Virus record (IMG/VR): IMGVR_UViG_3300020450_001133
DNA from: a virus
Lineage: Duplodnaviria > Caudoviricetes
DNA length: 64,000 nt
Strand: one strand, 5' to 3'
The translations under genes and the position numbers were made by a program. Position 1 is the stretch's first letter; every line of letters begins with the position of its first letter. The notes below the pieces were generated by a model. The model had not been told where the DNA came from and ran no database searches. It was given only the letters and a program-made list of their open reading frames with translations. Of the stretch, positions 24,891-50,347 are shown in pieces.

Positions 24891-24899
24891 TTTTAATTC

Positions 24900-28647: not shown

Positions 28648-29315
28648 CCGAATTTACTGTAATACTCTTCGAGTCTTTGTGTCCAAAGGTCGCAATACAT
28701 TTCAAATCTTGCTCCTTCAATAATAAACTCTTTGAGTTTTACATCTCTACTTACCATTAGTATAACACCTTTTTTTATGTCTGTGCCATACATCTCGTTG
28801 TGTGCTAATGCATAAGCACAACATTGTAAATAGTAATCTTCAATCCATTCTTCTTTTTTAATTTTCTTACTTGTTTTAAAGTCAATGATTGCGTCTTCAC
28901 CATTATGTACACCGACACAATCAGTTGTGCCTGCATATAGTCCTGGTGCAATAAGTCCTATTTCAGTACCCCAAACTTCATCTACATTAGCAAAACCTTC
29001 GTTAATCATAAGTTCACTCATATCTTTTGCCATAACACTTACCATGTTATTTCCAAATTCAACTGTCTCACCCAGTATATATTTTTCTATTGCATTGTGA
29101 ACTTTTGTGCCTAATCCTGCACTTTCTTTACTAACTCTATTTGCTTCTTGTTCACCAACTCTTTTACGCCAGGCAATAAGAGCAGTTTTGTCTGAAGTTT
29201 TATCCAAAATAGTTGTTACACTAGGAACTGGTATATTGTCATCTCCAACATACTTTCTTCCTTCTGCAGTTGTAACTCTTTCTAATTTTTTATATTGTAT
29301 TTTTTCTATGAGCAT
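28644..29315 (-). CDS. PD-(D/E)XK exonuclease
   Basis: PSVTTIL, GTKVH, YAGTTDCV, IIDFKTS, YYLQCCAYA. Confidence 0.88.
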   Translation of the reverse strand: MLIEKIQYKKLERVTTAEGRKYVGDDNIPVPSVTTILDKTSDKTALIAWRKRVGEQEANRVSKESAGLGTKVHNAIEKYILGETVEFGNNMVSVMAKDMSELMINEGFANVDEVWGTEIGLIAPGLYAGTTDCVGVHNGEDAIIDFKTSKKIKKEEWIEDYYLQCCAYALAHNEMYGTDIKKGVILMVSRDVKLKEFIIEGARFEMYCDLWTQRLEEYYSKFG

Positions 29316-30029: not shown

Positions 30030-30392
30030 TTATACTAATCCAGGATCTTTTACGGCATCTAATGCCTGGTCTTGTGCCATTGCGGCTACATCAGTTCCTG
30101 TTTCTTCTTCGCCTTCTGGTCCGGCATCTTCGGGCTCTGCCATATCATTTGGTATTTTGCCTTTTGGTGTAATAGAATCTTTATCAATAGCAGTTACCAA
30201 ATCCATTTGTTCTAATGCAGATTTTAGTTCTTCAAAACTCAATAGAAAACCATCAAGTGATAATGATTTTCTAAATTCTTCTGTGGGGATTTCGTTTACG
30301 TCTGAACCTAAGTATTGTGCAAGTCTGTCTTTAATTGCTAATTCGAGTTCATCAAAATATGCCTCCAGTAGTAATACTTCGGCTATTTTCAT
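30030..30392 (-). CDS. Hypothetical head-associated protein
   Basis: N-terminus MKIAEVLLLE resembles a capsid-targeting sequence; acidic. Confidence 0.55.
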   Translation of the reverse strand: MKIAEVLLLEAYFDELELAIKDRLAQYLGSDVNEIPTEEFRKSLSLDGFLLSFEELKSALEQMDLVTAIDKDSITPKGKIPNDMAEPEDAGPEGEEETGTDVAAMAQDQALDAVKDPGLV

Positions 30393-30394
30393 TT

Positions 30395-31681
30395 TTAAAC
30401 TCCTGCGTCGACTACTGGATCTGCTGGTACTTCGCCGGCTGGTTCTACTTCTGCTCTACCTAGTGGTTCTTCTTCTGGTCCTGCCGCCGCTGGTACATTA
30501 TCAACTGGAGCATCAACTGGTACTTCAGCATCAACTGGAGCATCCATAGGAGCACCTGCGTCTGCTAGTGAACCCATTCCTGTTAATTGTCCTACAACTG
30601 CATCAACACCATCTTTACCTACTTTGTTTGCATCTAATAGTGCTTGTAAAGATTGTTCCATTTGGTCTTTAATTTGACCTGCTTGGTCAACTCCAAACTC
30701 GGCAACCATTTGGTCTGCTATTGCTGGAATGTCTTCATTTACCATACGACCAATTCTTTCAATGTGATTTTGTACATCATCTGCTAATGCTCTGATTGCC
30801 ATAACAACTTCTGCTTGTTCAACTTCAACTTCTTCTGCAATCATATCATCTACAATGTCATCAAACATTTTGCTTTCTTTCTTTGCTTGTGATTTTTCAT
30901 CTGAAGTATCGCCAGATACTTTGTAAGTTTTGCCATCTACTTCAAACTCTTTTTCGCCTTTTTCAATAGCATCTTGTCTAGCACCTGTAAATTTGTTTTG
31001 CTCTCCAATTTTTGCACCAAACATTTGGATACCTGGAGTAATGCTGTCTAGTTCTAAACCATTTAAGAAACCTACAACTGCATCTCTGCTTTTTCCACTT
31101 ACGTTAGCAAATGTTCCAAGTTTTTCTTCAATAGCATCATAGTTTTCTACAGTTTCTAAATCTATACCAACTTCTTTTGCAAGTTCTCTTAATACAGGTT
31201 CATTAATATCAGATTCAATAGATTCTCTATTGCAACTTGACTCGTATGCTTTTGCGGCTTTAATCACTATCGGTAAAACAAATTCATCATCATAAGCATA
31301 TCGGGGGTCTTGTCTATATCTGTTCATGCATTCTGCACATGCTTCATCAACGGTGTATCCACCATCCATTAAGTTTTGTACTTCTGCATTAAGTTCTTGT
31401 CTCATGCCTTCTAGTGCTGGACTATCAGCATATACGCCTTCTTCAAGCATTGTGTCTATGACATCTCTTACACCTAAATACTTTGCGTATTCAGGATCAA
31501 TATTAAATTTTTTGTTAGTGTTTCTAAGTCTGACTACATGCATTTCTGCTTTTTCACGAACTTTTTCTAGTTTGTTTCTTGTATGAAAGCCAGTAACTTT
31601 AACACCATGGTTTTCCTTAAGATAGTTATTCATTGCTTTGATTCTATCTAAAGGTGTTTGATTAAAGTTTGCAATTTTCAT
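30395..31681 (-). CDS. Acidic helical protein, possible prohead core/scaffold component
   Basis: Long E/D-rich helices and an A/P/V/D-rich tail; function inferred only. Confidence 0.45.
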   Translation of the reverse strand: MKIANFNQTPLDRIKAMNNYLKENHGVKVTGFHTRNKLEKVREKAEMHVVRLRNTNKKFNIDPEYAKYLGVRDVIDTMLEEGVYADSPALEGMRQELNAEVQNLMDGGYTVDEACAECMNRYRQDPRYAYDDEFVLPIVIKAAKAYESSCNRESIESDINEPVLRELAKEVGIDLETVENYDAIEEKLGTFANVSGKSRDAVVGFLNGLELDSITPGIQMFGAKIGEQNKFTGARQDAIEKGEKEFEVDGKTYKVSGDTSDEKSQAKKESKMFDDIVDDMIAEEVEVEQAEVVMAIRALADDVQNHIERIGRMVNEDIPAIADQMVAEFGVDQAGQIKDQMEQSLQALLDANKVGKDGVDAVVGQLTGMGSLADAGAPMDAPVDAEVPVDAPVDNVPAAAGPEEEPLGRAEVEPAGEVPADPVVDAGV

Positions 31682-31749
31682 TTTGTTTTCCCGATAAAAT
31701 AAATTTGTTAATTGTATTTATCAATTATTGGAAAAAATATGTCAGTTTG

Positions 31750-32244
31750 TTAGTCTAGGTGTGTTGCATGTAACACATTAATACCTAATTTATCTTGTAA
31801 ACAATCTCTTTCGTGTCGTAATTTTGATACAGATATGTCAATTCTTGCTTCAGTTGAGAAGAATTTAACAGTATCTTTAGTGGTTTTTAGTGTATGCTTG
31901 TAGAAAAATAAATCATTCAAATGTTTTTCTATAATAGGTTGGTATTGCCTTAATGTTTCATTAAACTTTTCTATTACTTTAGGCAATTTCTTTTTATTAG
32001 ATTGTCTAAGAGTGGTTAAGATTTGATTTGCTGTTTCTGGTAATACTATATGTTCAATAATTACAGATTTAGTTGTGCCATCAACAATACTGTAAATACC
32101 GTTTTTGTCTCTTGATTTAAAAAATATACCTTTCTTAGAAACATTCGCAACACTAGACTCTAACTTTTTTGCTAGTTCTTGCTGTTTCTTTTTAGATAAT
32201 TTCTTTTTGCGGGTATGCTTTGTATTTCGGTTGACCATTATCAT
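31750..32244 (-). CDS. Hypothetical basic protein
   Basis: 164-aa ORF with a K-rich N-terminus. Confidence 0.6.
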   Translation of the reverse strand: MIMVNRNTKHTRKKKLSKKKQQELAKKLESSVANVSKKGIFFKSRDKNGIYSIVDGTTKSVIIEHIVLPETANQILTTLRQSNKKKLPKVIEKFNETLRQYQPIIEKHLNDLFFYKHTLKTTKDTVKFFSTEARIDISVSKLRHERDCLQDKLGINVLHATHLD

Positions 32245-32410
32245 TAATTCTGAGAACTAATCCTCTCTTTCTCAATTCCTTTGCTGTGTGTACTTCATTT
32301 TCTGTAAGTTCATACTCATATATACCTTTTTCGCTACGCAACTTGTCAAAGAAGTGAAACTCTTTACTGCTAACGAATGTGGAACCATGTTTATTTTTTA
32401 GAACTTTCAT
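32192..32410 (-). CDS. Hypothetical protein
   Basis: 72-aa ORF with ATGA coupling to the upstream gene. Confidence 0.55.
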   Translation of the reverse strand: MKVLKNKHGSTFVSSKEFHFFDKLRSEKGIYEYELTENEVHTAKELRKRGLVLRINDNGQPKYKAYPQKEII

Positions 32411-32604
32411 CGTTTTATTATAGAACTCTTTAATTTCTTTTTAGGACCTGGCTTCTTGTGTGCATGTTTTGTCTTTTTAGGCTTTTTAGGTCTTTGGACA
32501 ACACGTTGTACATCATTTGCAATTGGTTTTACAACTGTGGCAACTGCACCTGCACTCATGCCTCCTACTGATGCTGTCTCTTGAATTATTTCATGTATCT
32601 TCAT
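32407..32604 (-). CDS. Small basic protein with capsid-targeting-like N-terminus
   Basis: True start probably MKIHEIIQE at 32604, preceded by ATAAATA-CTAGC; K-rich tail. Confidence 0.6.
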   Translation of the reverse strand: MKIHEIIQETASVGGMSAGAVATVVKPIANDVQRVVQRPKKPKKTKHAHKKPGPKKKLKSSIIKR

Positions 32605-32612
32605 GCTAGTAT

Positions 32613-34520
32613 TTATCCTTTTTTCTTGCCGGCTTTCATATTTGCACACCAGTGATACATTTTTCCTTTCTCACCACTGTACTTTTTTGCTTTTGCACGA
32701 AGACTACTCACTGAGCCTTTACAACTAGCACCTGCTTTTTTTACTCTACCAGGTCTGCTTTTGCCTTTCTTTTTACCGTCAGCAAAGTTTTCATCTACAA
32801 TCTCTGCTGGTATTACATCTCTGCCAACACGTTTTGCTTGATACACTCTGTGAAAGCCATCAAGTATTGTTTTGCCATCTTTGTCTATCAGTATCGGGTC
32901 GTCTAAATCAACACCTACATCTGGATCAGTATCTATTACTCTGCCAAAACGGTCATCAATTGCTTCGTCATCTAAGTCTGCTACTTTAACTTTAATTAAT
33001 TTTGTCTTTTTGTCTTTAACATAATCTTTTACAGCAGGATTTAGATTTCTTTCATTAACATTCTTATAAACACTATACAACACAGGATTATTACCACAAC
33101 CAAGTTCATCGTTTGCTACACCTCTTATAAGTGCTTTTTGTCCTTGTCTGCTATCAAAGTCTCTATAAACATCTGCATAAACATCATCTATAGAATTATC
33201 GTCATGCCCATCATTACATTCATCTGTAAATCCTTCGTAGTGTACTATGTAATCTCCAACAGTATCTCTACCTACATCTGTGGGTACTAATTTATTTACA
33301 AACTCATCTACTTCTTTTGGTAAAGGCTTTTTATATCTATCTGGATCAAATACAGAACCTTTTGAATGTGCTAATGGATTGTATTCTGCTTTTTTATCAT
33401 GTGCTTTTTTATATTCTTTAGCACCTTGTTTTAAATCATCAAGTGCTTTTTTTAAAACACTTTTCATATCTTCTGTAACTCTTTTCTTTTTAGGCTTTTT
33501 TCTGCATTTCCAAACTTTGTCTGTGCTACAAAAATACTTACCATGTTTACAATTACTAGCATCTTCTGATGTGAGCATTGTTGTAAGTTTATTTTGCAAA
33601 CTGTCCATTACTGCTTGGTCACTAACTTTATGTGAAAAATGTTTCATTAATTCTTCAATGTCAGCATCTACAATAATTGCTTTTACTTTATCTATGCCTA
33701 ATATGTTTGCGGCATCAAATCTATGATGACCATTTACAAGATATCCTTTTTTATCTATTATAAAAGGTCTGTAATCTCCATCAAAGAACATGTTCTCTGC
33801 TCTTTTACTTAATCCATCTACTCTTTGACTTTGTACAGGTTTAATTTTGTCTAATGTAATAGTGCCTTGTTTAAAACTAAATGGTGAATCTTTAATGTCT
33901 CTTTTTCTTATTTGGGGTAATTGATTTCTATTAAAGTGCTTGTCGCTAACATGTCTTTCATATTCTTCTTCTATACCTTGTCTTAGTCTAATAACACCAC
34001 AACCTAATCTATCTCCAGCATTACCTGTTTTAAGACTTTCTTCATCTCCGCCTTTACCTAAATCATCTCTGCCGGCGTGTACAACAACTGCTCTACCAAC
34101 TACACTTCTATCACCACTTAAATCTACACGTCTGGCAACAATTTTAAATCTTGCTTCACCTTGTTCATTTGCTGTGACATTACCTAAATCTCCAACATGC
34201 CCACCATCTATGTCACCATGGTCAACTCCGTCTGGATTATAATGACCACCTGCACTAGCACAGCCATCACTTAAATCGCCAAATTCGTGTATGTGGAATC
34301 CATGTTCGCCTGGCTCTAATCCTTTTATAAGTCCTCTAATTATTGTAGGCTTGCCTGGTTCTTGTTTCATTTTAATGATGCCTTGCACATCACCTTCTGT
34401 ATGCTCAAAATTTACAAGTGCTTTTATAGTTTCTTCTGCTTCATTAAATGTATGCAAAGATTCACATTGGCATTGTGTTTCTCTAGTTCTAGGACATTTG
34501 TTTAAATCATTTGCCCTCAT
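32613..34520 (-). CDS. Fusion: Cu/Zn superoxide dismutase + two ParB/Srx-like domains + basic modules
   Basis: HGFHIH, GCASAGGHYNP, DHG, GHVGDLGN, VVHAG, RLGCGVI (all SOD1 ligands present); LVNGHHR and ILDGFHR ParB-like motifs. Confidence 0.85.
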   Translation of the reverse strand: MRANDLNKCPRTRETQCQCESLHTFNEAEETIKALVNFEHTEGDVQGIIKMKQEPGKPTIIRGLIKGLEPGEHGFHIHEFGDLSDGCASAGGHYNPDGVDHGDIDGGHVGDLGNVTANEQGEARFKIVARRVDLSGDRSVVGRAVVVHAGRDDLGKGGDEESLKTGNAGDRLGCGVIRLRQGIEEEYERHVSDKHFNRNQLPQIRKRDIKDSPFSFKQGTITLDKIKPVQSQRVDGLSKRAENMFFDGDYRPFIIDKKGYLVNGHHRFDAANILGIDKVKAIIVDADIEELMKHFSHKVSDQAVMDSLQNKLTTMLTSEDASNCKHGKYFCSTDKVWKCRKKPKKKRVTEDMKSVLKKALDDLKQGAKEYKKAHDKKAEYNPLAHSKGSVFDPDRYKKPLPKEVDEFVNKLVPTDVGRDTVGDYIVHYEGFTDECNDGHDDNSIDDVYADVYRDFDSRQGQKALIRGVANDELGCGNNPVLYSVYKNVNERNLNPAVKDYVKDKKTKLIKVKVADLDDEAIDDRFGRVIDTDPDVGVDLDDPILIDKDGKTILDGFHRVYQAKRVGRDVIPAEIVDENFADGKKKGKSRPGRVKKAGASCKGSVSSLRAKAKKYSGEKGKMYHWCANMKAGKKKG

Positions 34521-37500
34521 TATACTGTTCCTTTCTTAAGACTTAATTGTGCCCATTGTTCTCTACCAGCACCAGCCTGTGTAGGTATAATACTAATAGA
34601 GGTAGCCATTGCATGTCCACTACGTCTAAATGCAATTAAGTCATTTTCATTTTTAATCATTGCAGTTTTTTGGTTAGGAATACTAATTAAAAGTAAAGCA
34701 TCAAAATCATCTCTGTCTTTATACCATAAGAAGTTTTGTCTTAGATATGCATTTTCAATATTTTCTGCACTTGCATCTTTGGCTATTACATCACATATAG
34801 GAAGTGCAAATTCTTCCATATCCATTCTAAATAAATCTTCTGCAATTTGTCTTCTTAATTTTTGATTGTTAGGATCTGTTGGAGGTAAATCTGCATTAAG
34901 TCCATTAATAAATTTTGTAAATCCTAAACTTCCGCCTACACCACCAATTGCACCCATAACTGTTGGAATTCTTTCTGCATACTTTTCTATTACTGCCTGT
35001 TTAGCCTTTTGGCTTCCGCCACCGTAACCTATTCTTCCACCAGTGCTACTTGTAGCCGCTTTTAGTTCTACTTTACCTATGCCTTCTATTTCTAAGTCAC
35101 CTTCACCAGATGCAAGTTTTATTTTATTACTTAAACATGCTAGTCCGTATTCTCCAGGTCCTTTTTGATTAACACCAACACCATATGACGTTAATGCTCT
35201 AAAGGCTTTTGTGCTAATATCGTCACCAAATACATTTGCAAATGTGTTTAGTGGTTTGTCTAATTCTCCTATATTAACAACTGTTCCTGTTTTTTCTAAT
35301 CTTTCTATAAACTGACTCATTGTTGCATAGTCACTATCAAGTGTACTGATAATTCTAGTAATGTCTTGTATTACTTTTTCTTTTTGTTTATCTGAAAAAG
35401 GTTCGTCCATTAATGGATAACTAAATGCTTTGTCTAATGTTTTTCCTATATCTTCGCTGTTTAATAATTTATATATTCTATCTAATAGGTCTGCATGTTC
35501 TTCATTTGTAGCATCTAAACCACTAATAGTTTTTATGATGTTGTCTTTTTCAGCACCAATATCTTTATATTCTTTAAGCAGTTTAGCAACATGTTGTTTG
35601 CTCCACTCATTTAAATCTATTTTTTCTTTCATGTGGTCTGGTAGTGCATTTACAAAATGTCTTACAATACCTCTAGCACATGCATCTTTACCGCCTTGTG
35701 CTGTTAATTCTCTAAATGCGTTTAACATTTCAGGCATAGGTATAGCCTGGAATGCCAACATTTGTTTTTTAAGGTCGCCTACAGGAAAATGGTCTGCTAA
35801 TATTTTGTTTATAATTTCTATTCTATCAAAGTCATTTGTAGATTCATCTAAACCTTCTTTAGCCATTTTGGTTGCTGTTGCATACATAACTGCTTTGGCA
35901 TCTTTGCCATAACGTTTCTCAAAATCGCCTTTGGACTTTTTCATGCCTTTAACATACTTTTCTTTATCGCTCTTTTCACCTTTTGTCAAAGGTCTTTCAT
36001 TCATCTTTTCAGTTTTCTTTTTCATTTGATTAATGAATGTTCTATATACAGCCGCGGCTGATTTTTTACCTGCCGCTTTGGCACGTTGTTCCATAGCAAC
36101 TGCCGCCTGTATTTTGTGAGCATGTTTTTTACCTGAACTTCTTATCTTACTAACACTAGCCTTTGCGTCTTTCACAGTAGCAAATTTTAATCCTTTAATA
36201 GTGCCTTTGGGATTTTCATCTGTGTACAAGTCACTATGTTTTTTACTTCCTGCTGGTTGTCCTTTTTTACGTGGTATTCTTTTGCCTTCATTTTTCTTTT
36301 TGCCTGCACAATGAGCCTTTTGACTAAAGCCTTTTGGATTACTGCAATTTATACTGTCTTTGTATTTCTTACTCCACTTTTCTAATACTGTGGATTCATT
36401 TATAATAAGCAACTGTTCTTCTAAAGGTAATTTATCGAACCTGTCAAACACACTTTCATTCTGAGCTAGGTATTGTCTACCTTTGGCTAATGCATCTTGG
36501 AAAGTTCTTGGCAGTTGACTATTTGCTTCTTCTTTGTCTATTAATAGTTTTCTCATGACAGCCTTTTTGAAATCTTCGTCATTTCTTGGATTTTTTAAGA
36601 ATCCAACTAAATCGCTTACTTCTGGTCTCAAAATATGATATCCTATGCCATCTTGCATCATAGTATTAAATTCTATATACTTTTCACGCATATCTGCATA
36701 ATCTTGTTCAGTTACTTCGTCAGTTGAAAGATATGTGATACCTACACCATCTGCTTCGTCGTCTGCTCTTCCTCTTCTACTTGGTGGTGGAGCAGAACCT
36801 GAATCACCGTAAATAGAACCTACATCATCTCCAGGACTGCCGTCAGGATTTTTTCTAAAGTAGTTGCCAGCACTTACCATGTAATTCATTTTTATATATT
36901 CTGCGGCGGCTTTTACACTTGCTACCCATCTTTCCATACCAACAACATTTGGTTCTGGTTCTGGTCTCCATTCATGATTACCATCAAAGTTTCTAGCAAC
37001 TTTTTCTAATATGTTTGGACCTTGATTGTCTACACCTCTTTCTATTTTAAAGAAGTCTGCTAAGTTGGTCCAATTTACTGCATCTTGAATAGTGTTAGAT
37101 GCATCGCCTTGCATGTGTTCGACGCCACCTGCATCAATAATTCTTTTATTATCTATTACCCTTATGCCTTTGGGTGTTTGTTCCATTACAGTTTGAATTG
37201 CTTTGTAAAAACCCATGCCTTTGTTTATGACTAAATCATTAACTTTATTTTTAATTTTGTCTGCATCTTTACCGTGATATTTTACCCAATCATATGCCGA
37301 AGAAAGTTTATCATCGTTTTGTATTGTCCAACTGGCGGCACTACTTCTGTTTAAAGGCTCACCTGAATATTTATTTTTTAGTTCTTCGGTAGGTATAAGT
37401 TCTTCAACATCTCCCATACCTGCTCTGCCATCTAACTTTCCAGTAAATTCAATCCTAAATGATTTTGATATTTTTCTTCTATCCTCTCCATCTAATGATA

Positions 37501-40500
37501 CATATTTGTCTGGGTTGTTTAAAGTTTTAAAATCTATTCCATACACAGAAGCAAACTTTTCAAACAACTTACCATAGTTTACTGCTCTCCAGTTTTGACT
37601 CATATTGCCAACTTTTTGATAAATTTGTAATAATTCACTTCCACTCACAGCATCTTCTAATGGTCCCCAATGAGCCGAAGGAACAACAAAAAACATGCCA
37701 GGTCTAGAACCTTTGTTTACCTTTGTTGCACCATCCACAACATCTTGCAACAATGTACGATTAGGCATCATAGGTGCACCTGAATCATCTTTTTGGTCTC
37801 CGTACTCATCTATCCATTCCATTATATTATCATAATCTGATTTTCTCATGTATGTAAAAGAATGTCCAGGTATGTTTATGGTAGCATACGAACTGTTACG
37901 AATTGTTTTCTTAAAGTTATCTCTGTCTTTGGTCAGTTGTTGCTTACGTTTAATTGAACTGTCTTGACTTGCAAATCCATTATCAACAAATATTTTATCT
38001 ATGCCTCTCATAAAGTCACTTAGACCTTTGAATCTGGATTTCAAAAGATTTTTTATTTCTTTAAATTTATAATAAGCCGGATAACGTTCTTTGTTTCTAT
38101 AATATGCACCTAAACATTCTCTAACTGTATCAGTAACAAAATCTTCTAGATTTGTAATTGTTCTTTTTGTTACATCACCTTGTACAATATCATCTAATAC
38201 ATTTTGAATGTTTTCATATTTGTAACTTCTAATACCAAGAAATGTTTGGTCATCTGTTTCCCCAAGCATATCCATAAAGTTTTCTTTGTCTTCATCTGAC
38301 ATGTTGGGTAAATCTTTTACTTCTTCTGGATCTATTCCAAATATATCTGCAAACTCAGTTCCTCCGTCTTCTGATTTATTTGTTTCATAAAATTTTTCAA
38401 TCAAAGGTACCATTAATTTTAGACTTTCTGTTGTTTTTGATTGGTCTGTGGCAAATTGTTGCTCAAGAAAATCAAATCTTCTTCTCAACAACATTGTATA
38501 TTTGCTTAATGCAACATCTTCATAACTGTCATCATCATATATGTTTGGATTGTGATTTCTATTTACAGGTTCACTGTAAGATTCAAACTGTTTTACAAAT
38601 TTTATAAAATTATTAAAACCTTCTTTGTTATAAATCATTCCTGGTTGTACAAAGAAAGGTCTGCTGTTGTATCCTTCAGTTGTTAAGTGATTATAAAAAT
38701 CATTAAACTGTCTCTTGCTACTTGCATCTTTGAAAAGATTTTTCATATTCTCTATGATTTCTTTCATATCGGCTTTTGAATCTTTGCCTGTGCGAACATC
38801 TATACCAAGTGTTGTAAGTTCTTTAAGTACAGTAGGATTAAAATCTTTATTGTTCATTACATTCCACATGCCTTTGACTGCAGATTCAACTTCAGGTGCA
38901 GAGATAAAGTCTGGTCTTGAAATTACTTCTCTTTGCAACATTTTGTTCAAACCTTCTCTCACCATTTCAATTCTGTTTTGAATTGTGAGATTTGCATCCA
39001 TTTGTAAATCATCTAACACTAATTTAATATTGTTGTCTAATTCTTTATCAGAGATACTTTCTTTTTTCATAAAGGTTCTTAAAGCACCGATACTTTTTGC
39101 ATTTGGTTGTTGTCTTGCAGTTCCTTTAGCAACATCTACAGCAACCATTCCAAGTGCTTCACTAAATTCTTTTACAGCCTCTCTTCTCATAGCACCAGCC
39201 TCTTTACTGGGCTGAGACGTTGATGGTTGGAAGTATGCTTTAATTGACCTACCGCTTCTTGCTCGATTTACTTTATCGATAATATCATCTTCTTCTTTGA
39301 CTTTGCCTCTTTTGGAGTATTTAATGCTGTTTAATGCTCTTTTTAAAGAACTATCATAATCATCTAAACTAGCATTTGTGTTTTCAATGAATTCCATCCA
39401 TTGTTTTTTCCATTTGATGTCTGCTTTAGGTTCTAATGATTGTCTAGCCTGTTTTAATTTTTCCATTGAATGTAGCATTTTTCTAGAAAAGTCTAAATAT
39501 TTTTTAGAACTAATCATTGCTTTTGTTATATCCAATATTGGATCGCTGGCAACATCTTCAAATTGGCCTTTGAGTTCATCTACTTCTTCTACATCACCTT
39601 GTGCAACGTCATTTGCTTTACGCAATAGTTTGGACAATGCTTTTACATAATCGCCTTCATATTGGTCTGTATGCCCAGCAATCATTGTGGTGGCATATCT
39701 TACTACTGCTTTGAATACTTTGTCGAAGTCTGTTTCGTAATCTTCTCCACCACCTATTCTAAACTCTATTAGATCCGTCATAGTTTTTCTATCCATTTGA
39801 CCTTTAAAATGTATTGCACGGAATTTGTCATCACTGATAGCCTTATCTAAGAATGCTTCTGCTTTTTTGATACCTTCAGTACCTGATTCTTGTTTAAGGT
39901 CACCAATTGCATTTTGTAATTCTTTGTATTGACTTTTGGTGTAAGTGTTACTGCCTCTTAAAAATTCATTTAATAAGTATTGGTCTCCTAACAACACAGC
40001 CATTTTAACTCTGTTCACTCCATTTTTACCAAGCCATTCATTGGCTTCCTCACCTTGTGCATCGTAACTCATTGTGACATGCAATCCAGTACTGTTGTTT
40101 GTTGATGCTCCTTCGCTTTGCAGGAACTCAAAAAACTTTTTCATTTCTGCTAACATTCTTCTTGGAGTACTAAACACTGGTGATATAATTTCTGCACCTG
40201 TTCCATATCCGTCAATACTGCTGTCTGACTCTACCGCATATTGTATTGTACTGCCACTGGTGTTACCATAGTCGCCACTTTCCACATGATCATCTGAAAA
40301 AGCACTATTTTCTCTGACAAATTTTGAAACAAGTTCGGCAACTTCACCTAAGTTGTTTCCATAACTGTAATCTATGCCCATGTCATCACAGAATGAACTC
40401 ATGCTGTACCATTGGTCATTGATCCAATCGTCATAATCATAATTACTTTCTGCATCTTCGTATGCACTTTGTCTTACATCATCGTCGTCTGCGGCTTGTT

Positions 40501-41518: not shown

Positions 41519-41522
41519 ACGT

Positions 41523-41804
41523 TTATCTTCTATTAAGTTGTCTTAATCTTCTAGCCGCTGGATTCATTCTTTTAGTTCTTTGGCTAATTCTACTAAGACG
41601 TTTACCCATTCTGGCTTTAGTTCTTTTTAGTACCATACGTTTTTTCATATTAATAGGTGCAGTACATTGTGATGGTTTACTCACAACTCTACCTTTACGC
41701 CTACCGCTTGTACAACGAACAGCACGTTTAATTTTTTTACCCATTCTACGCCAGACCATTCTGGCTTCGGTAATTTGTTCTTCTGTTATATCACTAATTA
41801 ACAT
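41523..41804 (-). CDS. Small, highly basic protein
   Basis: R/K-rich after MLISDITEEQITE; likely nucleic-acid binding (inference). Confidence 0.65.
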   Translation of the reverse strand: MLISDITEEQITEARMVWRRMGKKIKRAVRCTSGRRKGRVVSKPSQCTAPINMKKRMVLKRTKARMGKRLSRISQRTKRMNPAARRLRQLNRR

Positions 41805-41805
41805 T

Positions 41806-42054
41806 TTATCCCATCATGTTTACTAATAAACCAACAACCAGTGCAATCAAAGTAGTAAAACTTGTTCCTACAATAGCAATAAGCCAATTTTCCATTTTGT
41901 CTAAACGTCTTTTTGTATCATCTTTGAATTCACGTAATTCAGTAGTAATACTTTCAATACGCAACATGTCAGCAATTATGTGTGCTTCTAAATTATTAGA
42001 TTCTGCATACACCTGCTTTTCAACTGGTTTCTTTTCTGGTTCAGGTTTCTTCAT
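41806..42054 (-). CDS. Coiled-coil protein with C-terminal transmembrane helix
   Basis: Heptad region ELREFKDDTKRRLDKMEN followed by a hydrophobic tail. Confidence 0.6.
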   Translation of the reverse strand: MKKPEPEKKPVEKQVYAESNNLEAHIIADMLRIESITTELREFKDDTKRRLDKMENWLIAIVGTSFTTLIALVVGLLVNMMG

Positions 42055-42055
42055 C

Positions 42056-42460
42056 TTATAATAAATCCTGTTTAGTAAATTCCATATTTATGGAACCTGT
42101 AGTATCTATGGTGCCTGCATTAAGCACTACACCATTTAATTCATCTTTAAGTGTGTCTACTGTATGGGCATTAGGAGTTTCTGTAGCAAATTTAAAAATA
42201 AAACCTGCTCCAGTTAATGTAGGTGCACCAAAATTTTCTAATTTGTTTGTACCTACTCCATTTAGTTGTACTGGATTATTCATCACAGTTGGCATTGCCC
42301 TCATTCCTATTACTTGTACAACACTTTCGAAATCTTTTTGACTGTTATCTGCAAAATTTCCAGATGCTGTTATGTCTAAAGTAGTGAACAAAGTAAAAAA
42401 CTCAATGTTACCTGTTAATACTTCTACGGATGCCATTGCTCCGCTTCTTGTTCCCACCAT
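42056..42460 (-). CDS. Probable small virion protein
   Basis: Start MVGTRSG at 42460 after an AGGAG SD; T/G/N-rich; own ATAAATA motif upstream. Confidence 0.55.
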   Translation of the reverse strand: MVGTRSGAMASVEVLTGNIEFFTLFTTLDITASGNFADNSQKDFESVVQVIGMRAMPTVMNNPVQLNGVGTNKLENFGAPTLTGAGFIFKFATETPNAHTVDTLKDELNGVVLNAGTIDTTGSINMEFTKQDLL

Positions 42461-42516
42461 ACTGTCTCCTGTGTATGTAATAACTGTATTTATCACTTTG
42501 TACAGATTAATAAGTC

Positions 42517-42548
42517 AAAAAAAATCCCCACACAAGGCGGGGATTTTT
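42517..42548 (-). terminator. Rho-independent terminator
   Basis: ATCCCCGC-CTTGT-GTGGGGAT stem-loop followed by a T-run on the minus strand. Confidence 0.85.
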
Positions 42549-42568
42549 CAAAGTTTAAAACTTTTAGG

Positions 42569-42901
42569 TTACACTACTCTGTATTCACCTGCAGTTACCG
42601 TTGCGTTTGCTCCGTTACCTGTAAGCATTGGTTGAATAGCCGCTAGTAATCTAGCCGCGGTAGGTGAACCTTCAACACCAACATGCATTACTGTCGCAGA
42701 AATGCTGTTAATAAGTACTGGAGTACAAATTGTTGATATACCTTGAACAACTAATTCACCTTTTTGAGCCGCTCCACCTGAGAACCCAAATTGGCTAATG
42801 TTGTCAGTACCATCTACTTCATCAATAATGAAGTGACTTAAAGTACCAACCATAAGTTGACTGTTATCAAGAACTGCACCATTCACTCTTGTTTGTGCCA
42901 T
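42569..42901 (-). CDS. Probable abundant virion protein (decoration-like)
   Basis: MAQTRVNG start, strong SD, own late-like promoter and terminator. Confidence 0.55.
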   Translation of the reverse strand: MAQTRVNGAVLDNSQLMVGTLSHFIIDEVDGTDNISQFGFSGGAAQKGELVVQGISTICTPVLINSISATVMHVGVEGSPTAARLLAAIQPMLTGNGANATVTAGEYRVV

Positions 42902-42923
42902 GATAGTCTCCTACTGTTTTTTT

Positions 42924-42985
42924 ACATGTTCGTGGTCTCTAAACCACCACCGTTTTAAGAACATGCTTTGGATACAAGTATTTAT
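42924..42985 (-). promoter_or_regulatory. ATAAATA motif plus structured 5' leader
   Basis: ATAAATA at 42985-42979; hairpin GCATGTTC..GTGGT..ACCAC-GAACATGT (42966-42924) upstream of AGGAG. Confidence 0.5.
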
Positions 42986-43025
42986 CGATTATTTTTGGAA
43001 TTTAAAGTATAGTAAAAATGTAATA

Positions 43026-43622
43026 CTATTTGCCTTTTCTTGTAAAGTTAAAAGATTTTTTAGTTTGAGGTGCTAAATCTCTAATCTTTTTAACTGCACC
43101 AGAAATATCATCTATAGTATCTCTTGTTGCTTTTGCAACTTTGCCAGGACTTTTAAGTTTTCTCAAAGGTCCTATATCTTTGAAACGTTTTGCTATGCCG
43201 ACTTTGTCTTTTTTGGGTTTGGCTTCTGGTTCTACAGTTGTACCATAGTATCTGTCGTGTTTTAGGCTTCTACCAATAGCATCTTTTCTACTTCTAGAAT
43301 CATCATCTGAATCTTTTGTTGATGAAGATTTCATTTTATCAGGGTCAATTCCAGGTGTACTGCGTTTAAATCCAAACTCTGATTTCATTCTATCTTTTAA
43401 TTCTGGATGTAATTCTTCAATAGCCAAATCCACAGCCAAACCTGGTGTCATACTTGGTCCACCTGTTGTGTATAAACCTTTTGCTTTTTGTACTACTCTG
43501 GGTGTGTCTACATTTTCCCAGCCAGGTCTTCTTCTGCCCACAGGTCCAATTTTGTCTTCAATTTCTTGCATGACAATATCGTTTACATTTTGTTCGACTA
43601 TGACTATATCTGCTATTTTCAT
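43026..43622 (-). CDS. Hypothetical protein with capsid-targeting-like N-terminus
   Basis: MKIADIVIVE; preceded by ATAAATA-TTAAC-ATG; basic C-terminal half. Confidence 0.65.
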   Translation of the reverse strand: MKIADIVIVEQNVNDIVMQEIEDKIGPVGRRRPGWENVDTPRVVQKAKGLYTTGGPSMTPGLAVDLAIEELHPELKDRMKSEFGFKRSTPGIDPDKMKSSSTKDSDDDSRSRKDAIGRSLKHDRYYGTTVEPEAKPKKDKVGIAKRFKDIGPLRKLKSPGKVAKATRDTIDDISGAVKKIRDLAPQTKKSFNFTRKGK

Positions 43623-43634
43623 GTTAATATTTAT

Positions 43635-44402
43635 CTATAATTTTTTTCTACCACTTGCCCAATAACCTGCTATTGCGCCAATTCCTGCACCTGTTTTAGA
43701 ACCTAACTTTCCTTTGGTAAGTTTTGGTAATACTTTACTTCCTACATAAGCACCACCAACTGTTGCGGCGGCTCTTTTCAATGTATCTGATTTACGTTTA
43801 GGCTCTTTGTATGCTCTTGTAGTTTTCATTGCCACTATGTGTTGGAAAACTTCACTAGGTCTGGCTTTTATTCTCATGCGTTGCATAATTTTTGCCACTA
43901 CCATTTGCTTTTGTGCATACTTTAAATCACTCCAATCAACAATTAAACGTCTAAATAATCTATATTGTGATTCTTTAATATCTAATTGACGTTCTAGTCT
44001 TATTAAAAATGAACTAATTTCACTTCTACTTGGAGTTGTTTGTCCTAACTTTCTTAAAAAATTAAAATGCTGTCTATTGTTAAATTGCAATTTGTCTAAG
44101 AACTTTCTATCTTTTCCACTTATTTTTAAACTTGTATTGTCTGAATACTTTATTGCATAAGCCAACATGTAGATATCTGTTGCATGTGTTCTAAACAAAG
44201 CATAAGGTCCATATGCAGTACTCTTTCTAGCATAAGCAACACCGTAATCCTGTTGTTCTTTATCTTTTGTAAACATTATTACACTTAATGTTTGCAGATA
44301 TAATAAGTCAGCAATATCTCTACCTGAAAGTCGTGCAAAGTTTCCTGTGTATCTATACAGTTTGCTTTCACTTAAATCTTGGTCTATTAATTGAAAATCC
44401 AT
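43635..44402 (-). CDS. Hypothetical protein with C-terminal glycine zipper
   Basis: AATVGGAYVG..GAGIGAIAG. Confidence 0.65.
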   Translation of the reverse strand: MDFQLIDQDLSESKLYRYTGNFARLSGRDIADLLYLQTLSVIMFTKDKEQQDYGVAYARKSTAYGPYALFRTHATDIYMLAYAIKYSDNTSLKISGKDRKFLDKLQFNNRQHFNFLRKLGQTTPSRSEISSFLIRLERQLDIKESQYRLFRRLIVDWSDLKYAQKQMVVAKIMQRMRIKARPSEVFQHIVAMKTTRAYKEPKRKSDTLKRAAATVGGAYVGSKVLPKLTKGKLGSKTGAGIGAIAGYWASGRKKL

Positions 44403-45697
44403 TATGCTCCTGGCATTCCTGTTTGGAAATTTTGCCTACTAAATTCTAATCTGTCTACTAATTTTAATGCATTACCTAATCTGTCTACTGCAACAAAACC
44501 TTCTTCTCCTGTTACTTCGTAACCCTTTTCGCTTTTAATAAAAGTAGGTATTTGTTGTAACGTTCCTAGTTTATTTAACAATTTAACTTTTGCTTCTATA
44601 ATTTTAAGATATAAATCATATACTGCTACAATACCTTCAACATGCTCTTTGATAAATCTTACACCTTGAACCATAAGGTCTGTTTTTTTATCTTTAGTTG
44701 CTTGAGTTTTTACTTTGTCTATTTCTTTTGTCATAAAGTCTATGTATTTTTGTACAAAACTTTGTGCAAACTTTGTAGGGTTTTGTTCAAACCCGCCTGC
44801 TCTTATGGCATTGTTTACATGTGCTTTTAATTGTTGTAAGAAATCTTTGCCAATTAAATCGTTGCCTTTTTCAAGCCAACTAAATGTTTCATTGTCTATG
44901 CTTTTTAAGTATGTGTCTGCATCTTTAATTGCTTGTAATACATCTGCACTTTCATCACTTGTAAGTGTAACTGTACCACTTAAATCTTTTATTGTGGCGT
45001 CTCTGTGCCACACACCGTTTGCTTGTCCTAACACACTACTGTCAAAACCAAATTTAGCAGTTGTGTCTGCAAGTGTAGGTCCTCCTACATATTCTGTATG
45101 CCACACAATACCAAAACTTGCACTTGAAATTTGTTTTTCTAAATCGCTGTCTTTTGGTATTGCATAAGTTATTGTGTTAGGTTTGAATGCAATATAGTTA
45201 TCTCCGTCTATTGCAACTGATTCTATATCTTCTGGTCCTGCAAACAACATGTCTCCTTGTGCAACTGTATTCCAATTTAATTTACTTAGATAGTTTAATG
45301 CAAGTTTAAGTTTCTTTCTTAATCCACTACCGTCTTTATCACCTACATCTGCATGATTAATATCTATGTCTTTTTCAGTAAAATTTATTTTTGCCTTTTT
45401 GGCAAATACACCTTTTGTACCTACAAAAAATTTACCTGTTTCAGGATCTTTACCTGCCACAATGGCTGGTGCTCCATCCCATTTTGTTGTCATGCTTACT
45501 GATTCTTTTGAACTGCCTTCTAGCATTTGATGTAAACTGTAAAGATAGTTTACTGCTTCTTTGGCTCCTGCAAAACCTTTATTAAAAATATTATCTTCTA
45601 AATGTTCTAGATGAGTATTTTTACCTTCTGCTTCAAGTATTAAACTTTCAGAAAGTATTTGTGTTATTAGAGGTTTTGATATTTCTAAAAATTTCAT
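44402..45697 (-). CDS. DUF6267-like phage protein with a ligase-like KxDG motif
   Basis: KNTHLEHLED, TTKWDGAPAI, FFVGTKGVF, EGFV..LKLVDRLEFSR. Confidence 0.7.
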   Translation of the reverse strand: MKFLEISKPLITQILSESLILEAEGKNTHLEHLEDNIFNKGFAGAKEAVNYLYSLHQMLEGSSKESVSMTTKWDGAPAIVAGKDPETGKFFVGTKGVFAKKAKINFTEKDIDINHADVGDKDGSGLRKKLKLALNYLSKLNWNTVAQGDMLFAGPEDIESVAIDGDNYIAFKPNTITYAIPKDSDLEKQISSASFGIVWHTEYVGGPTLADTTAKFGFDSSVLGQANGVWHRDATIKDLSGTVTLTSDESADVLQAIKDADTYLKSIDNETFSWLEKGNDLIGKDFLQQLKAHVNNAIRAGGFEQNPTKFAQSFVQKYIDFMTKEIDKVKTQATKDKKTDLMVQGVRFIKEHVEGIVAVYDLYLKIIEAKVKLLNKLGTLQQIPTFIKSEKGYEVTGEEGFVAVDRLGNALKLVDRLEFSRQNFQTGMPGA

Positions 45698-48600: not shown

Positions 48601-50094
48601 ACCAAAATCATTATTAGTAGGGCTTTCACTTCTAAGACCTAAAACTTTACCATCAGGATCTTTAAGTGTTTGTGTATAACCGTCTGCAACATCTGGATCA
48701 TCGAAGTCTGCTGAAACTCTTACTTCAACTGTATTACCGTTTGGCATTTGTGTTGTATATGTACCTGGTTTTAATTCATCTAAATTTGTTACGTTTCCTT
48801 GTGCATCGAATTCTGCTGGTACTGGCATTTCAGGTGGTTGTATAACTTCTGTAGAGCCATCTGCACCTGTAACTGTTATTGTTCCGTCTGGGCTCATTAT
48901 CTGTGTGCCACCATCCGGAGTTGCTATTGCTTCACCTGGTCCTAATGCATCTGTGGGTACACCACCTGCACCAACGCCGGCTTCTTGAGCAATTTGATTT
49001 CTAAATGCTGTTGCTTCTTCTGAGAAGTAACCATCCATGCCGCCACCATTGTCTGCAACTATGCTATTGTACTGAGCAAATTCTTCTTCAGTAAACAAAA
49101 CACCCATTGAACTACCACCATTGAAATTGGATTCGATACCGTTCATAGTTCCAACTGTATTGTTTTGTAATATTTCCTGATATTTTTCAGCATATTCAGG
49201 ACCAACATTTATTTGTTTTAAAAAGTTATTTGTTGCTTGGTCTAGTTCAGGGCCAGAAAAAAGTTCGTTTGAGAGACTTGGATCTGATTCCATGTTTGCT
49301 AAGAATTGGTCAATTTCTTCTGGAGTCATGTCAGGCATTGCGTCTTGTAATTCACTTGCTGGTAATGTCATTCCACTTTTAAAAGTGGATAAATTTTCAT
49401 CACCAGTAACTTCTACACCATCTAATATTCCATCTAATGCCGCACCAGCCAGACCTGCAAGAGCACCTTTGGCTAATCCACTAGCCGCCGCTTTTCCAAC
49501 ATCTGCAACTGTTCCGCCAGCCGCCGCCTTAATAGCACTATCTACAACTGTTCTGAATATTGCCGCACTTCCTATAACACCTAACAATGCTGGGCCACCA
49601 ACTCCTGCGGCACCCATACCAATTGTTATAACTGTTAAAATTAATCCTTTAAATGCCGCAACGTCTTGGTCATTTTCTATTGCTTGAGCACCTTTTTCAA
49701 TTTGCCCTACAATAGCACTTGCTTTAGAACCTGCTGGTTCTGGTAAACCTGCAACCATCTTTTTAATACCATTAATAGGTACTGCATTACCAACTTTAGA
49801 TAGTAAGCCTTTTAGTTTAGGATTTCCTGTAATTTTAGCAAATAAAGGTGTTAATTGTGTTTGAACTTTCTTTGCAATTTTTTGAGTATCTCCACCTTCG
49901 CCTCTATTGGCAACCATTTGTTGAAATACTGTTTGAATTTGTGCTGGTTGTAAAGGAGCCTCATCCAATCTTTGCATTTCTGCAATAATTGTATTAAGGT
50001 CATCTCTAACTTCACGTGGAAGTGTTTGCCATGCTTCATTGATAGCAATACTTTCTGTGATTAAATTTATGTCGTTACGAATTTGAATGGACAT
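45697..50094 (-). CDS. 1465-aa low-complexity protein with hydrophobic Gly/Ala segments and Pro/Gly repeats
   Basis: Hydrophobic GLILTVITIGMGAAGVGGPALLGVIG, glycine zippers, PPKGPQGGTT repeats; ends RIRELAGV. Confidence 0.7.
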   Translation of the reverse strand: MSIQIRNDINLITESIAINEAWQTLPREVRDDLNTIIAEMQRLDEAPLQPAQIQTVFQQMVANRGEGGDTQKIAKKVQTQLTPLFAKITGNPKLKGLLSKVGNAVPINGIKKMVAGLPEPAGSKASAIVGQIEKGAQAIENDQDVAAFKGLILTVITIGMGAAGVGGPALLGVIGSAAIFRTVVDSAIKAAAGGTVADVGKAAASGLAKGALAGLAGAALDGILDGVEVTGDENLSTFKSGMTLPASELQDAMPDMTPEEIDQFLANMESDPSLSNELFSGPELDQATNNFLKQINVGPEYAEKYQEILQNNTVGTMNGIESNFNGGSSMGVLFTEEEFAQYNSIVADNGGGMDGYFSEEATAFRNQIAQEAGVGAGGVPTDALGPGEAIATPDGGTQIMSPDGTITVTGADGSTEVIQPPEMPVPAEFDAQGNVTNLDELKPGTYTTQMPNGNTVEVRVSADFDDPDVADGYTQTLKDPDGKVLGLRSESPTNNDFGGASEVGEVPAEDPNAPQEVGEPPAEDPNAPQEVAPITPEVEKQAQEAITKYEANAPKEVAVSPDDTPAEIEATLKQQGDDLVAAEKELPIKAEATIGPKLKQMMDDARANPGSVEGAIQMDSADFVKEKFPKIDTFNKFNAESAANTVKLDAFRDNLKNWMDSNGEDWDYEMWPDGPPEPTDYGNGESAFAATKAEIEAEMGGADDTDWFDDDDPTKDAFGDDIVPVDPNATAADRIKASRDRMDLEMGYVHPEWKNVLSEEIGKDFDDLVEQVGEQVAVFAMLEWYNRWVKENTIVIEGLNHLQEHRLIENIEQTIKEAPGDQPAKGGGLAGIAKKVGSAYNKATAAVGKGAKAVAGGAMNVLIKPVLNSAPVKGFLNKIQQAVGMQGAIDPAKLQTDYEGAGSPTDSDEVGKFLIKNSGATKSEVDAAFKGAGVEAQAPEETPDDEPTPPEGGDTPPKGPGGETPPEGGEEPKPGTQPQPGEEPKPGEQPQGGQQPQGGQQPKGGATGGQQGGETIPDPKNPNIDGGDPKKTAGVVRDPVNDTFYKTDPETGNLIQTDKGGKPIAGADPLAPDSLQAKRIKQTQANPTGQDPKIDPATGKKQGIVSKIGQGIKQAVGGGLATATRNDPNAGMLQKGAAVTGALAGRALGGAFKMAGQAIGGLGAGLKGDDGKKQPGGTTPGGTTQTPTPPKGPQGGTTPPKGPQGGTTPPKGPQGGTTPPKGPQTPPVDKNKDGVDDKTGAEVDADGDGKNDVTKKPVKKQKTGGKVKGQVSDTDSAKYQRDRRAKLKQQQKDANKDGKDDATGQPIQQQPATGGKGAAQADAQADDIAARKDAVAQSKAQRGAITPQDHQLIRNDLAALAQTKDPKIARKIADKLSAYKDQGTDVSDYASSLNAVQKKVGIQGTAAKVARGMRSEAYQFMNSILESVNLTWQDIGYDVIILEEETEYVYLIPAGLQRIRELAGV
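46423..46530. repeat. Perfect coding tandem repeat, 30-bp unit x3.6
   Basis: TTGTGGTCCTTTTGGAGGAGTTGTTCCGCC repeated with no spacers; encodes PPKGPQGGTT. Confidence 0.95.
48501..48575. repeat. Coding tandem duplication, 42-bp period
   Basis: Encodes PAEDPNAPQEV twice. Confidence 0.8.
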
Positions 50095-50347
50095 CGTGGC
50101 TCTCTTTTATAACTTTTTTTATGCCACGTGAGAATTTTTTAGAATCACCGCTTTTAAGACTGTTTATCATTCTACGTTCTAAGTCTAATGCAGTAGATTC
50201 ATCATACGTTTCTCTTAGAATTTTCTTAACATTTTCAACACCACTAACCAAATGTTCTACTCTATTTTCAAGTACATGATGTTTATTTCTATCAACACTG
50301 ATAGAGTTAAGTTCTTCTAAAATTGTTCTAGTTTTACCTTGTGACAT
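50075..50347 (-). CDS. Hypothetical phage protein downstream of the helicase
   Basis: 90-aa helical ORF with an upstream ATAAATA motif and SD. Confidence 0.65.
   Translation of the reverse strand: MSQGKTRTILEELNSISVDRNKHHVLENRVEHLVSGVENVKKILRETYDESTALDLERRMINSLKSGDSKKFSRGIKKVIKESHDVHSNS

Follow-up and report, generated by a model that had tools for sequence, protein, structure and literature searches.

The 64,000-nucleotide (nt) stretch of the Caudoviricetes record IMGVR_UViG_3300020450_001133 (hereafter the window) carries an island of 16 genes, plus one gene for a 234-amino acid (aa) protein, between a DnaB/gp41-like helicase (50381-51763) and a PD-(D/E)xK-type exonuclease (28644-29315). 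Every gene of this region lies on the minus strand. Seven of the island proteins begin with a short leader that is followed by a hydrophobic-x-Glu (h-x-E) site and that probably directs them into the phage head. From the helicase side to the exonuclease side, the island reads as follows (h-x-E sites are numbered by their Glu).

50075-50347, minus strand: 90-aa protein without a leader, the first gene past the helicase, which opens the late block; phrog_11854 'virion structural protein' (E 5e-14); homologue of gp259 of phage PA5oct
45697-50094, minus strand: 1465-aa protein starting MSIQIRNDINLITE, with Gly/Ala-rich hydrophobic stretches and Pro-rich 10-aa repeats
44402-45697, minus strand: 431-aa DUF6267 protein (PF19782, E 4e-101) with a KxDG motif; leader of about 22-24 residues starting MKFLEI, site ILE22
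43635-44402, minus strand: 255-aa conserved protein without a leader; some relatives have it joined to a module that is part of the 635-aa protein in the window
43026-43622, minus strand: 198-aa protein with a basic C-terminal half; leader MKIADIVIVE, site IVE10; GATAAATA box 13 nt upstream
42056-42901, minus strand: 110-aa and 146-aa paralogues without a leader; the 146-aa protein matches PA5oct gp250 (E 4e-27)
41806-42054, minus strand: 82-aa protein without a leader, with a hydrophobic helix at the C terminus
41523-41804, minus strand: 93-aa extremely basic protein starting MLISDI; leader MLISDITEEQITE, next residue A, then RMVWRR; site ITE13
34520-41518, minus strand: 2332-aa multi-module protein starting MKAKDV; leader MKAKDVRTLESVLLE (nt 41474-41518) followed by YG; site LLE15
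32613-34520, minus strand: 635-aa fusion of a leader (MRANDL...NEAEE, site FNE27), a Cu/Zn superoxide dismutase (SOD), a ParB/Srx-like domain, a second ParB-like stretch (DGFHR), and a basic, Cys-containing tail after VDE577
32407-32604, minus strand: 65-aa basic protein; leader MKIHEIIQE followed by TASVGG, site IQE9
31750-32410, minus strand: 72-aa and 164-aa proteins without a leader; the 72-aa protein matches phrog_16215 'virion structural protein' (E 5e-4)
30395-31681, minus strand: 428-aa acidic protein (phrog_14154) starting MKIANF, where Asn replaces Asp/Glu
30030-30392, minus strand: 120-aa acidic protein; leader MKIAEVLLLE followed by A, site LLE10

The initial annotation had noticed the seven N termini as instances of M-[KRL]-[IAF]-x-[DE]-[IVL], and all of them are found on the minus strand exactly as written there. 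For MKIHEI, the ATG at 32604 lies inside a longer GTG open reading frame (ORF; 32407-32649); we take this ATG as the real start because a GATAAATA box is located at 32617, 13 nt upstream, and because the relatives begin with MKISEI or MKISDI. As had also been claimed, a hydrophobic-x-E soon follows the start, within 27 residues in 7/7 proteins. The motif initiates 7 of the 16 island genes and none of the 54 other genes of the window (Fisher p = 9.5e-6, a value inflated because the motif was defined on those very genes). For comparison, five loci among the helicase's 271 IMG/VR relatives were extended over the whole island. A generalised motif, M-[KR]-h-x-[DE]-h (h, hydrophobic), initiates 34 of their 97 island ORFs and 0 of 113 flanking ORFs, counts that are not independent because the ORFs are orthologues.

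In these relatives, the N-terminal pattern is kept where the protein sequence is not. Behind the 90-aa gene they encode proteins of 300-530 aa, which resemble the 1465-aa protein in the final ∼100 residues alone and begin with MKLSDIFEA, MRFQEINEA, MKIHDIILE, or MKIFEFGDLVNE. A hidden Markov model of these conserved C-terminal residues found nothing in the helicase-adjacent proteins of Melnitz, HTVC008M, and S-PRM1, in the corresponding block of PA5oct, or in genomes G006 and G007. The slot of the 198-aa protein is likewise occupied by partly non-homologous proteins, all of which are motif-initiated (MRIKDIILE, MLIKDIIVE, MLINDIINE).

Within the 93-aa and DUF6267 families, conservation is lowest in the leader, two residues excepted. 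Across 22 distinct N termini of the 93-aa family, the leader is invariant only at Met1 and at the Glu of h-x-E and is followed by an invariant RMVWR; the 23 DUF6267 homologues have no invariant residue ahead of K26 other than M1 and E22. Strongly conserved sequence (RMVWR and KNTHLEHLED, respectively) begins 1-3 residues past the P1 Glu in both families. The h-x-E site of the leaders is positioned at residues 8-27, with I, L, V, M, or F at P3 of the conserved sites. The leader ends in this (L/I)-x-E-type site, and the predicted cut falls after the Glu.

DUF6267 is present in 466 phage records, chiefly of cyanomyoviruses, and allows leader-bearing and leaderless forms to be compared. The window's leader reads MKFLEI...LILE/AEG (nt 45626-45697; here and below, a slash marks a predicted cut or a border), and residues 1-32 have low confidence in an AlphaFold2 (AF2) model. 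The protein of cyanophage S-PRM1 has no leader and starts MAKNTHLEHLED, exactly where the window reads ...LILEAE/GKNTHLEHLED, and those of HTVC008M and Melnitz carry short, different extensions ending VED and TED. Because DUF6267 is leaderless in other phages, the jumbo clade appears to have added the leader to this enzyme.

T4 late promoters read TATAAATA. In the island, GATAAATA or CATAAATA boxes are found 13-85 nt before the genes for the 90-, 198-, 110-, 146/134-, 82-, 65-, and 428-aa proteins as well as before two flanking structural-type genes; these late-promoter boxes are consensus matches, not expression measurements. The positions of several of them are given here.

50378, minus strand: GATAAATA box before the 90-aa gene
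42986 and 42494, minus strand: late boxes before the 110-/146-aa paralogues
31722, minus strand: GATAAATA box before the 428-aa gene

The primase and DNA-polymerase fragment genes are preceded by TTGAC...TATAAT promoters instead. Here, between 52600 and 55500, the sigma-70-like elements stand before the primase and a 189-aa DNA-polymerase fragment (phrog_11778), and a late box stands before the 'virion structural' gene (270 aa) that separates the two, so that early units alternate with late ones. The GATAAATA box at 42494 falls within the 146-aa GTG ORF (42056-42496), for which gene calls on metagenome contigs give 134 aa, probably the length of the true product.

A megablast search of the island against phage genomes gave no match, and an exact 41-mer of the window has no occurrence in IMG/VR. 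The nearest cultured relative is the Pseudomonas jumbo phage PA5oct (helicase 54% identical), which shares the window's gene order: primase, helicase, gp259, a block of virion proteins detected by electrospray ionization tandem mass spectrometry (ESI-MS/MS), exonuclease, gp243, and ribonucleotide reductase (RNR). The 428-aa protein aligns over its full length with gp247, a virion protein detected by mass spectrometry (MS; blastp, 26% identity, E 1e-23), and blastp likewise pairs the 146-aa protein with gp250, a structural protein seen by MS, and the 90-aa protein with gp259. PA5oct gp251 starts like the 110-/146-aa paralogues by eye, with no match in blastp. The 120-aa protein resembles gp246 (MS-detected; (M)KIKDILVE) in position, size, and N-terminal pattern; blastp gives no match between these two, and the corresponding protein of relative G007 (MRAKEILYE) does match gp246. 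In the window itself, 'virion structural protein' PHROGs are assigned to the 90-, 72-, and 428-aa proteins.

We read the whole PA5oct annotation and listed the annotated starts that match the generalised motif. The coding sequences labeled as MS-detected number 93, the same figure as in PMC7318152. The motif initiates 7 of these 93 proteins (gp333, gp309, gp279, gp254, gp246, gp105, and gp104) and 2 of the 352 others (gp408 and gp103; p = 3.6e-4). An enrichment over non-virion genes, proposed in the initial annotation as a check, was found in PA5oct for this generalised motif. Six of the seven detected proteins show an h-x-E ending at residues 8-11 (IITE, MAE, LYE, LVE, LIE, LTE); gp254 has LDE at residue 5 only. 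gp333 directly follows the portal gene, which is the slot of the T4 core protein gp67.

The PA5oct block gp245-gp259 (Lood et al. 2020, PMC7318152) is similar to the island in its helicase-to-exonuclease position and in the N-terminal motif on MS-detected proteins. In contrast to the island, it spans only ∼10 kb and possesses no giant proteins, SOD, or DUF6267. A word search of the main text of PMC7318152 found no mention of a shared leader.

A protease that might act on the leaders is encoded in the relatives. PA5oct possesses a Peptidase_S77 (the T4 gp21 family; E 7e-25) between scaffold-like genes and beside the portal and major capsid genes, and S77 relatives occur on 40 IMG/VR contigs. 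Among the carriers are two complete IMG/VR genomes of 363 kb that bear terminal repeats; their helicase shares 58% identity with that of the window, and they keep synteny from helicase to exonuclease. Five 60-68-kb IMG/VR fragments of the closest clade gave no Peptidase_S77 match, a result that says nothing of absence because these fragments are only 17-22% complete. PA5oct also carries a second gene annotated as 'head maturation protease', gp212 (NC_071039 179881-181020), and the adjoining gp213 would start MKIKEIILE if translation began five codons past the annotated start.

The proteins that carry the leader are diverse. In the 635-aa protein, residues 45-177 (nt 33990-34388) form a Cu/Zn SOD that covers the whole PF00080 profile (1-133 of 133; E 2e-44, 151.7 bits, cut-off 28.9). 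The stretches GFHIHEFGD, HVGDLGN, and VVHAGRDDLGKGG are visible and presumably hold the metal-binding histidines. Residues 236-310 (nt 33591-33815) match ParB PHROGs and represent a ParB/Srx-like domain. Both payload identities, SOD and ParB-like, had been assigned in the initial annotation and are solid. The amidoligase named there is probable: of the 100 clusters nearest to the region of about residues 417-678 of the 2332-aa protein (nt 39485-40270) in an atlas feature search, 94 belong to the Amidoligase_2 set (best score 0.95), whereas the score against Amidoligase_2 (PF12224) is 16.2 bits, under the cut-off of 22 (E 0.01). In tblastn, the 2332-aa protein matches hypothetical proteins of Atu_ph07 and RsoM2USA.

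For the 'ligase-like' protein, membership in DUF6267 is firm, and the ligase identity is suggested at the motif level by its KWDG. Foldseek against the PDB gave weak matches only, RNA and DNA ligases among them (E 0.2-1.2), and a wide VIA alignment of the AF2 model gave no clear fold match, with a helical domain dominating. A phmmer search of PDB sequences gave no match for either DUF6267 or the amidoligase-like region and one weak, unrelated match for the C-terminal region of the 2332-aa protein. This region (1893-2332) is variable and contains a GDLEIEG...VELK motif. The proposed nuclease is likewise a motif-level call; restriction-endonuclease clusters appeared in the atlas search at 0.8 only, a lead and not evidence, and AF2 on residues 1972-2332 (single sequence) reached a pLDDT of 35. 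Small, very basic proteins are present (93 and 65 aa), as had been stated, and may bind DNA. The 2332-aa protein contains basic modules as well, an inserted one at 1714-1841 (nt 35996-36379) and one at 1842-1892 (nt 35843-35995).

Cu/Zn SODs are normally exported, and the 1465-aa and 82-aa proteins contain hydrophobic segments, as would suit a leader that sends proteins elsewhere (cell membrane, periplasm, or replication compartment) or that is a degron or regulatory peptide. We consider such a role very improbable. The leader is short, acidic, and amphipathic, unlike a Sec or Tat signal, and is borne by soluble, highly charged proteins, and the association with PA5oct virion proteins points to the particle.

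The initial annotation had further proposed that modules of the large proteins begin after h-x-E sites. We aligned the 2332-aa and 635-aa proteins with those of the five relatives, and breakpoints were picked after the alignments had been seen. VLE1713, MNE1841, LDE1892, LNE1971, VNE490, and VDE577 fall exactly at homology breakpoints, whereas VTE349 lies in an unconserved, window-specific insertion. Overall, 8 of 10 breakpoints are located 0-2 residues after an h-x-E, compared with a background of 4-8%.

In the 2332-aa protein, segment 1714-1841 sits between VLE/ and MNE/, and relatives without it read VLE/RPL. Its first part is kept by one relative; the segment is wanting in the other four examined. 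The segment shares 75-79% identity with portions of proteins from cyanomyoviruses (S-SM2 SSM2_108/109, Bellamy, and P-TIM68 gp111, which is encoded beside the major capsid gene), and this identity, together with the patchy presence, suggests a recent exchange of the module between the window's jumbo phage and cyanophages. The next borders are LDE/S and LNE/W, and past the latter, three unrelated C-terminal domains alternate among the relatives.

The SOD module of the 635-aa protein has IEE at its end. It is cleanly missing in IMGVR_UViG_3300020374_000579 (ORF 24826-26004), where the leader runs straight onto the ParB-type protein (MRLIELQIE/RPKSDK) and where the 400-486 module of the window's protein is fused to the 255-aa homologue instead. 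The basic tail (NFADGKKKGK) is preceded by VDE, VVE, LDE, IIE, or MDE in 6/6 sequences. Internal cutting of the giant proteins at such sites is plausible. The coincidence of breakpoints with h-x-E makes the proposed polyproteins suggestive, a grade held back by the post hoc choice of breakpoints and by the exceptions described below.

The T4 capsid-targeting sequence is said to have been treated by Mullaney and Black in 1996. The genome of T4 shows MAKINELLRE at the start of gp24, MELITELFDE in Alt, and MLKEQLIAE in gp22. The leader of the T4 internal proteins is MKTYQEFIAE (PMC8442874). In T4, gp21 cuts after L/I-x-E, leaders are 10-20 residues long, and the 10 N-terminal residues of IPIII are enough for packaging (PMC9026906, PMC5694885); targeting and gp21 processing of IPI-III, Alt, gp24, and gp22 have been reviewed (PMC9026906, PMC3012670, PMC8442874).

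The island is similar to this system in several respects: a ∼10-residue leader that ends in h-x-Glu on unrelated proteins, basic DNA-associated proteins together with enzyme cargo, a gp21-family protease (here in the relatives), and late expression (here judged by the boxes). However, the leader is not the sequence MKTYQEFIAE, to which it had been likened in the initial annotation. Its acidic residue stands at position 5 and not 6, and aromatic residues are absent from positions 4 and 7; MKIAEVLLLE, MKIADIVIVE, and MKIHEIIQE are closest to the starts of T4 gp24, Alt, and gp22. In contrast to T4, the island leaders vary in length (8-25 residues), their genes form a cluster flanked by replication genes, the cargo includes much larger proteins and is rich in enzymes (2332, 1465, and 635 aa; SOD, amidoligase-like, DUF6267), and the system is known from sequence alone. 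Two starts in Kyanoviridae are very near MKTYQEFIAE, namely S-SM2 SSM2_108 (874-1302), MKTLKQFLKE, and Melnitz gp15 (450-1535), MQGFKTFLSEA, with an aromatic residue or Leu at position 4, Phe at 7, Leu at 8, and Glu at 10. Marine T4-like phages may thus use the canonical T4 tag.

With a probability of roughly two in three, the island would encode a T4-like capsid-targeting and propeptide system by which a T4-related jumbo phage of the PA5oct/Rak2 type fills its head with enzymes and basic proteins. The head-packaging leader with a protease site was part of the initial annotation; conservation of the pattern, the enrichment among PA5oct virion proteins, the gp21-family protease in relatives, the late boxes, and the leaderless homologues argue for it, whereas the register differs from that of the T4 internal proteins. 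About half of the island genes would carry the leader, M-[KR]-h-x-[DE]-h-(h)-x-E, of 9-25 residues. The leader would dock its protein onto the scaffolding core during prohead assembly, as the T4 capsid-targeting sequence does, and a gp21-family prohead protease would then remove it by cutting after the Glu of the hydrophobic-x-Glu. The enzymes so enclosed would be the Cu/Zn SOD fused to the ParB/Srx-like domain, the amidoligase-like domain, the DUF6267 KxDG enzyme, and possibly a PD-(D/E)xK nuclease, and the small, very basic proteins would likewise end up in the capsid. Because the 2332-aa and 635-aa proteins consist of exchangeable modules joined at h-x-E, the same protease would probably separate at least some of these modules. 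Core binding, cleavage, and ejection into the host are steps that we infer.

The scaffold protein of G007 starts like the leader (MAKKLDELLSE), which suggests that the leader mimics a scaffold N terminus. Together with T4 gp22, this likeness would also suit a leader that is a scaffold or core-assembly motif of prohead components, which stay or are degraded in the head and are not injected, with the enzymes acting in the particle or being passengers. Extreme acidity or basicity is all that marks several island proteins, and PA5oct gp333 occupies the gp67 slot. We regard this explanation, which differs from T4-like loading in the fate of the cargo only, as unlikely. T4 puts the same kind of leader on injected proteins (internal proteins, Alt) and on core proteins (PMC9026906), and SOD, ParB-like, and KxDG enzymes that look intact would be hard to explain as scaffolding.

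Several points weigh against a capsid-loading system. AT-rich genomes commonly have MK-hydrophobic starts. The overall density of hydrophobic-x-E is at chance relative to shuffles, with a weak excess solely in the 2332-aa protein (z = 2.6); we therefore discarded global enrichment as evidence, and only the position of the sites matters. One relative has Q at P3 of its leader (QIE). In PA5oct, the generalised form alone is enriched; the exact motif of the initial annotation is not significantly so (2 MS-detected vs 1 other). The 'virion' label of PA5oct is noisy, because the set includes obvious non-structural proteins such as RNR and thymidylate synthase. This virion evidence from a cultured phage covers none of DUF6267, SOD, or the giant proteins; PA5oct gp256 (MNIAEI..., KIDG) is not detectably related to DUF6267 and therefore provides no virion evidence for it. 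Packaging and cleavage in the window's phage are proposed from its relatives, PA5oct being the source of the MS data, and the presumed S77 protease is known from relatives and not from the window's own genome. Finally, breakpoints were chosen post hoc from the alignments, and at least two module borders have no h-x-E site (KKPL/PKEV, KNEGK/RIPRK).

Some of these points would suit a leader without any targeting role. Its start would then reflect first-codon selection on highly expressed, AT-rich late mRNAs, or common descent or recombination of 5′ gene ends, and h-x-E would arise by chance, as its density allows; unrelated genes do have MK-hydrophobic starts (MKILTV, MKINFD), and the motif was defined post hoc. 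However, late genes of the same block have no motif (those for the 90-, 110-, 146-, 82-, and 255-aa proteins), and at the protein level, sequences of 35-95% identity retain the acidic position 5, the hydrophobic position 6, and the invariant P1 Glu. The enrichment among MS-detected proteins of a distant cultured phage and the existence of leaderless homologues likewise render this explanation improbable, and less credible than the scaffold motif.

A stronger form of the capsid-loading proposal would see a minimal 9-10-residue address tag and Glu-specific cut sites as a plug-and-play system that turns any acquired gene into capsid cargo, both in the marine clade and in PA5oct. Genes converted in this way would include those for SOD, the ligase-like enzyme that lacks a leader in cyanophages, the amidoligase, nuclease-like domains, and basic modules exchanged with cyanophage head proteins. 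The prohead protease would mature the 2332-aa and 635-aa proteins, which would be polyproteins in the strict sense, and an antioxidant enzyme would be injected with the genome. We put this forward tentatively and with more doubt than confidence. To our knowledge, polyprotein maturation by a prohead protease is a strategy undescribed for tailed dsDNA phages.

Two further known systems are comparable. The phages phiKZ, 201phi2-1, and SPN3US (PMC5694885, PMC10052503) are also jumbo phages with many head proteins, including enzymes, which a gp21-related protease cuts after Glu, with multiple cuts in each. However, their sites are S/A-x-E, their propeptides mostly exceed 100 residues, and they belong to another jumbo lineage, whereas the island shows a hydrophobic P3 as in T4 and short leaders. 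The polyvalent proteins (Iyer et al. 2017, PMC5512222) are very large multi-domain proteins of late or virion context that combine ParB/Srx-like and other enzymes and have been proposed to be packaged and delivered with the DNA. The same build is seen in the 635-aa protein (SOD, two ParB-like stretches, and a basic tail) and in the 2332-aa protein (amidoligase-like domain, basic modules, and a variable C-terminal domain). Whereas polyvalent proteins are typically tied to their own MPTase domain or to a MuF/portal fusion, processing in the island would be performed by the prohead protease at h-x-E. No Pfam or PHROG match to MPTase, MuF, or portal was found in whole island proteins or their segments, large parts of which have no recognizable domain, and the main text of PMC5512222 mentions neither superoxide dismutase nor amidoligase.

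The concept is thus already known from T4, the phiKZ-like phages, and the polyvalent protein idea (PMC5512222). What the island adds is a different form of leader, employed throughout a large clade of uncultured marine jumbo phages and in PA5oct, and a cargo that is new in its size and in the enzymes it contains. Among the papers searched by keyword on capsid targeting in cyanophages and on prohead proteolysis and propeptides of RaK2, none describes such a leader.

If the proposal is correct, a sequence rule would predict which proteins are packaged, and perhaps injected, by ocean phages of a large, abundant, and uncultured group. The DUF6267 protein of the window has matches in 46 metagenome-collection blocks; among the matches listed, 6/6 are ENA ocean assemblies, and 4 are Tara Oceans scaffolds. 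The cargo would be unusual, comprising Cu/Zn SOD, ParB-like enzymes, amidoligase, and a ligase-like enzyme that is widespread in untagged form in cyanophages. The island would further show how the addition of a short leader recruits enzymes into virions and how jumbo phages and cyanomyoviruses exchange modules. Once validated, the tag could become a handle for packaging proteins, a use to which the T4 leader has already been put, and the prediction is directly testable in cultured PA5oct.

The 1465-aa protein has no MK leader, yet LITE and AINE sites are present. It gave no Pfam, PHROG, or phage match, and tblastn and the related-locus search were also empty. In otherwise near-identical Tara/ENA contigs, its length is 1445 or 1455 aa, differences that fit copy-number variation of the 10-residue PKGPQGGTTP repeat. 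In the nearest IMG/VR relative, IMGVR_UViG_3300020421_001872, an extra leaderless 404-aa gene (8778-9992) is inserted between the 255-aa and 198-aa homologues. Outside the island, an 887-aa protein (24900-27563) with an Mtd_N (major tropism determinant N-terminal) domain has its own late box at 27598 and shares its position and a similar N-terminal motif (RIxNRRG) with the PA5oct virion protein gp243. It is probably a fiber or receptor-binding protein amid nucleotide-metabolism genes.

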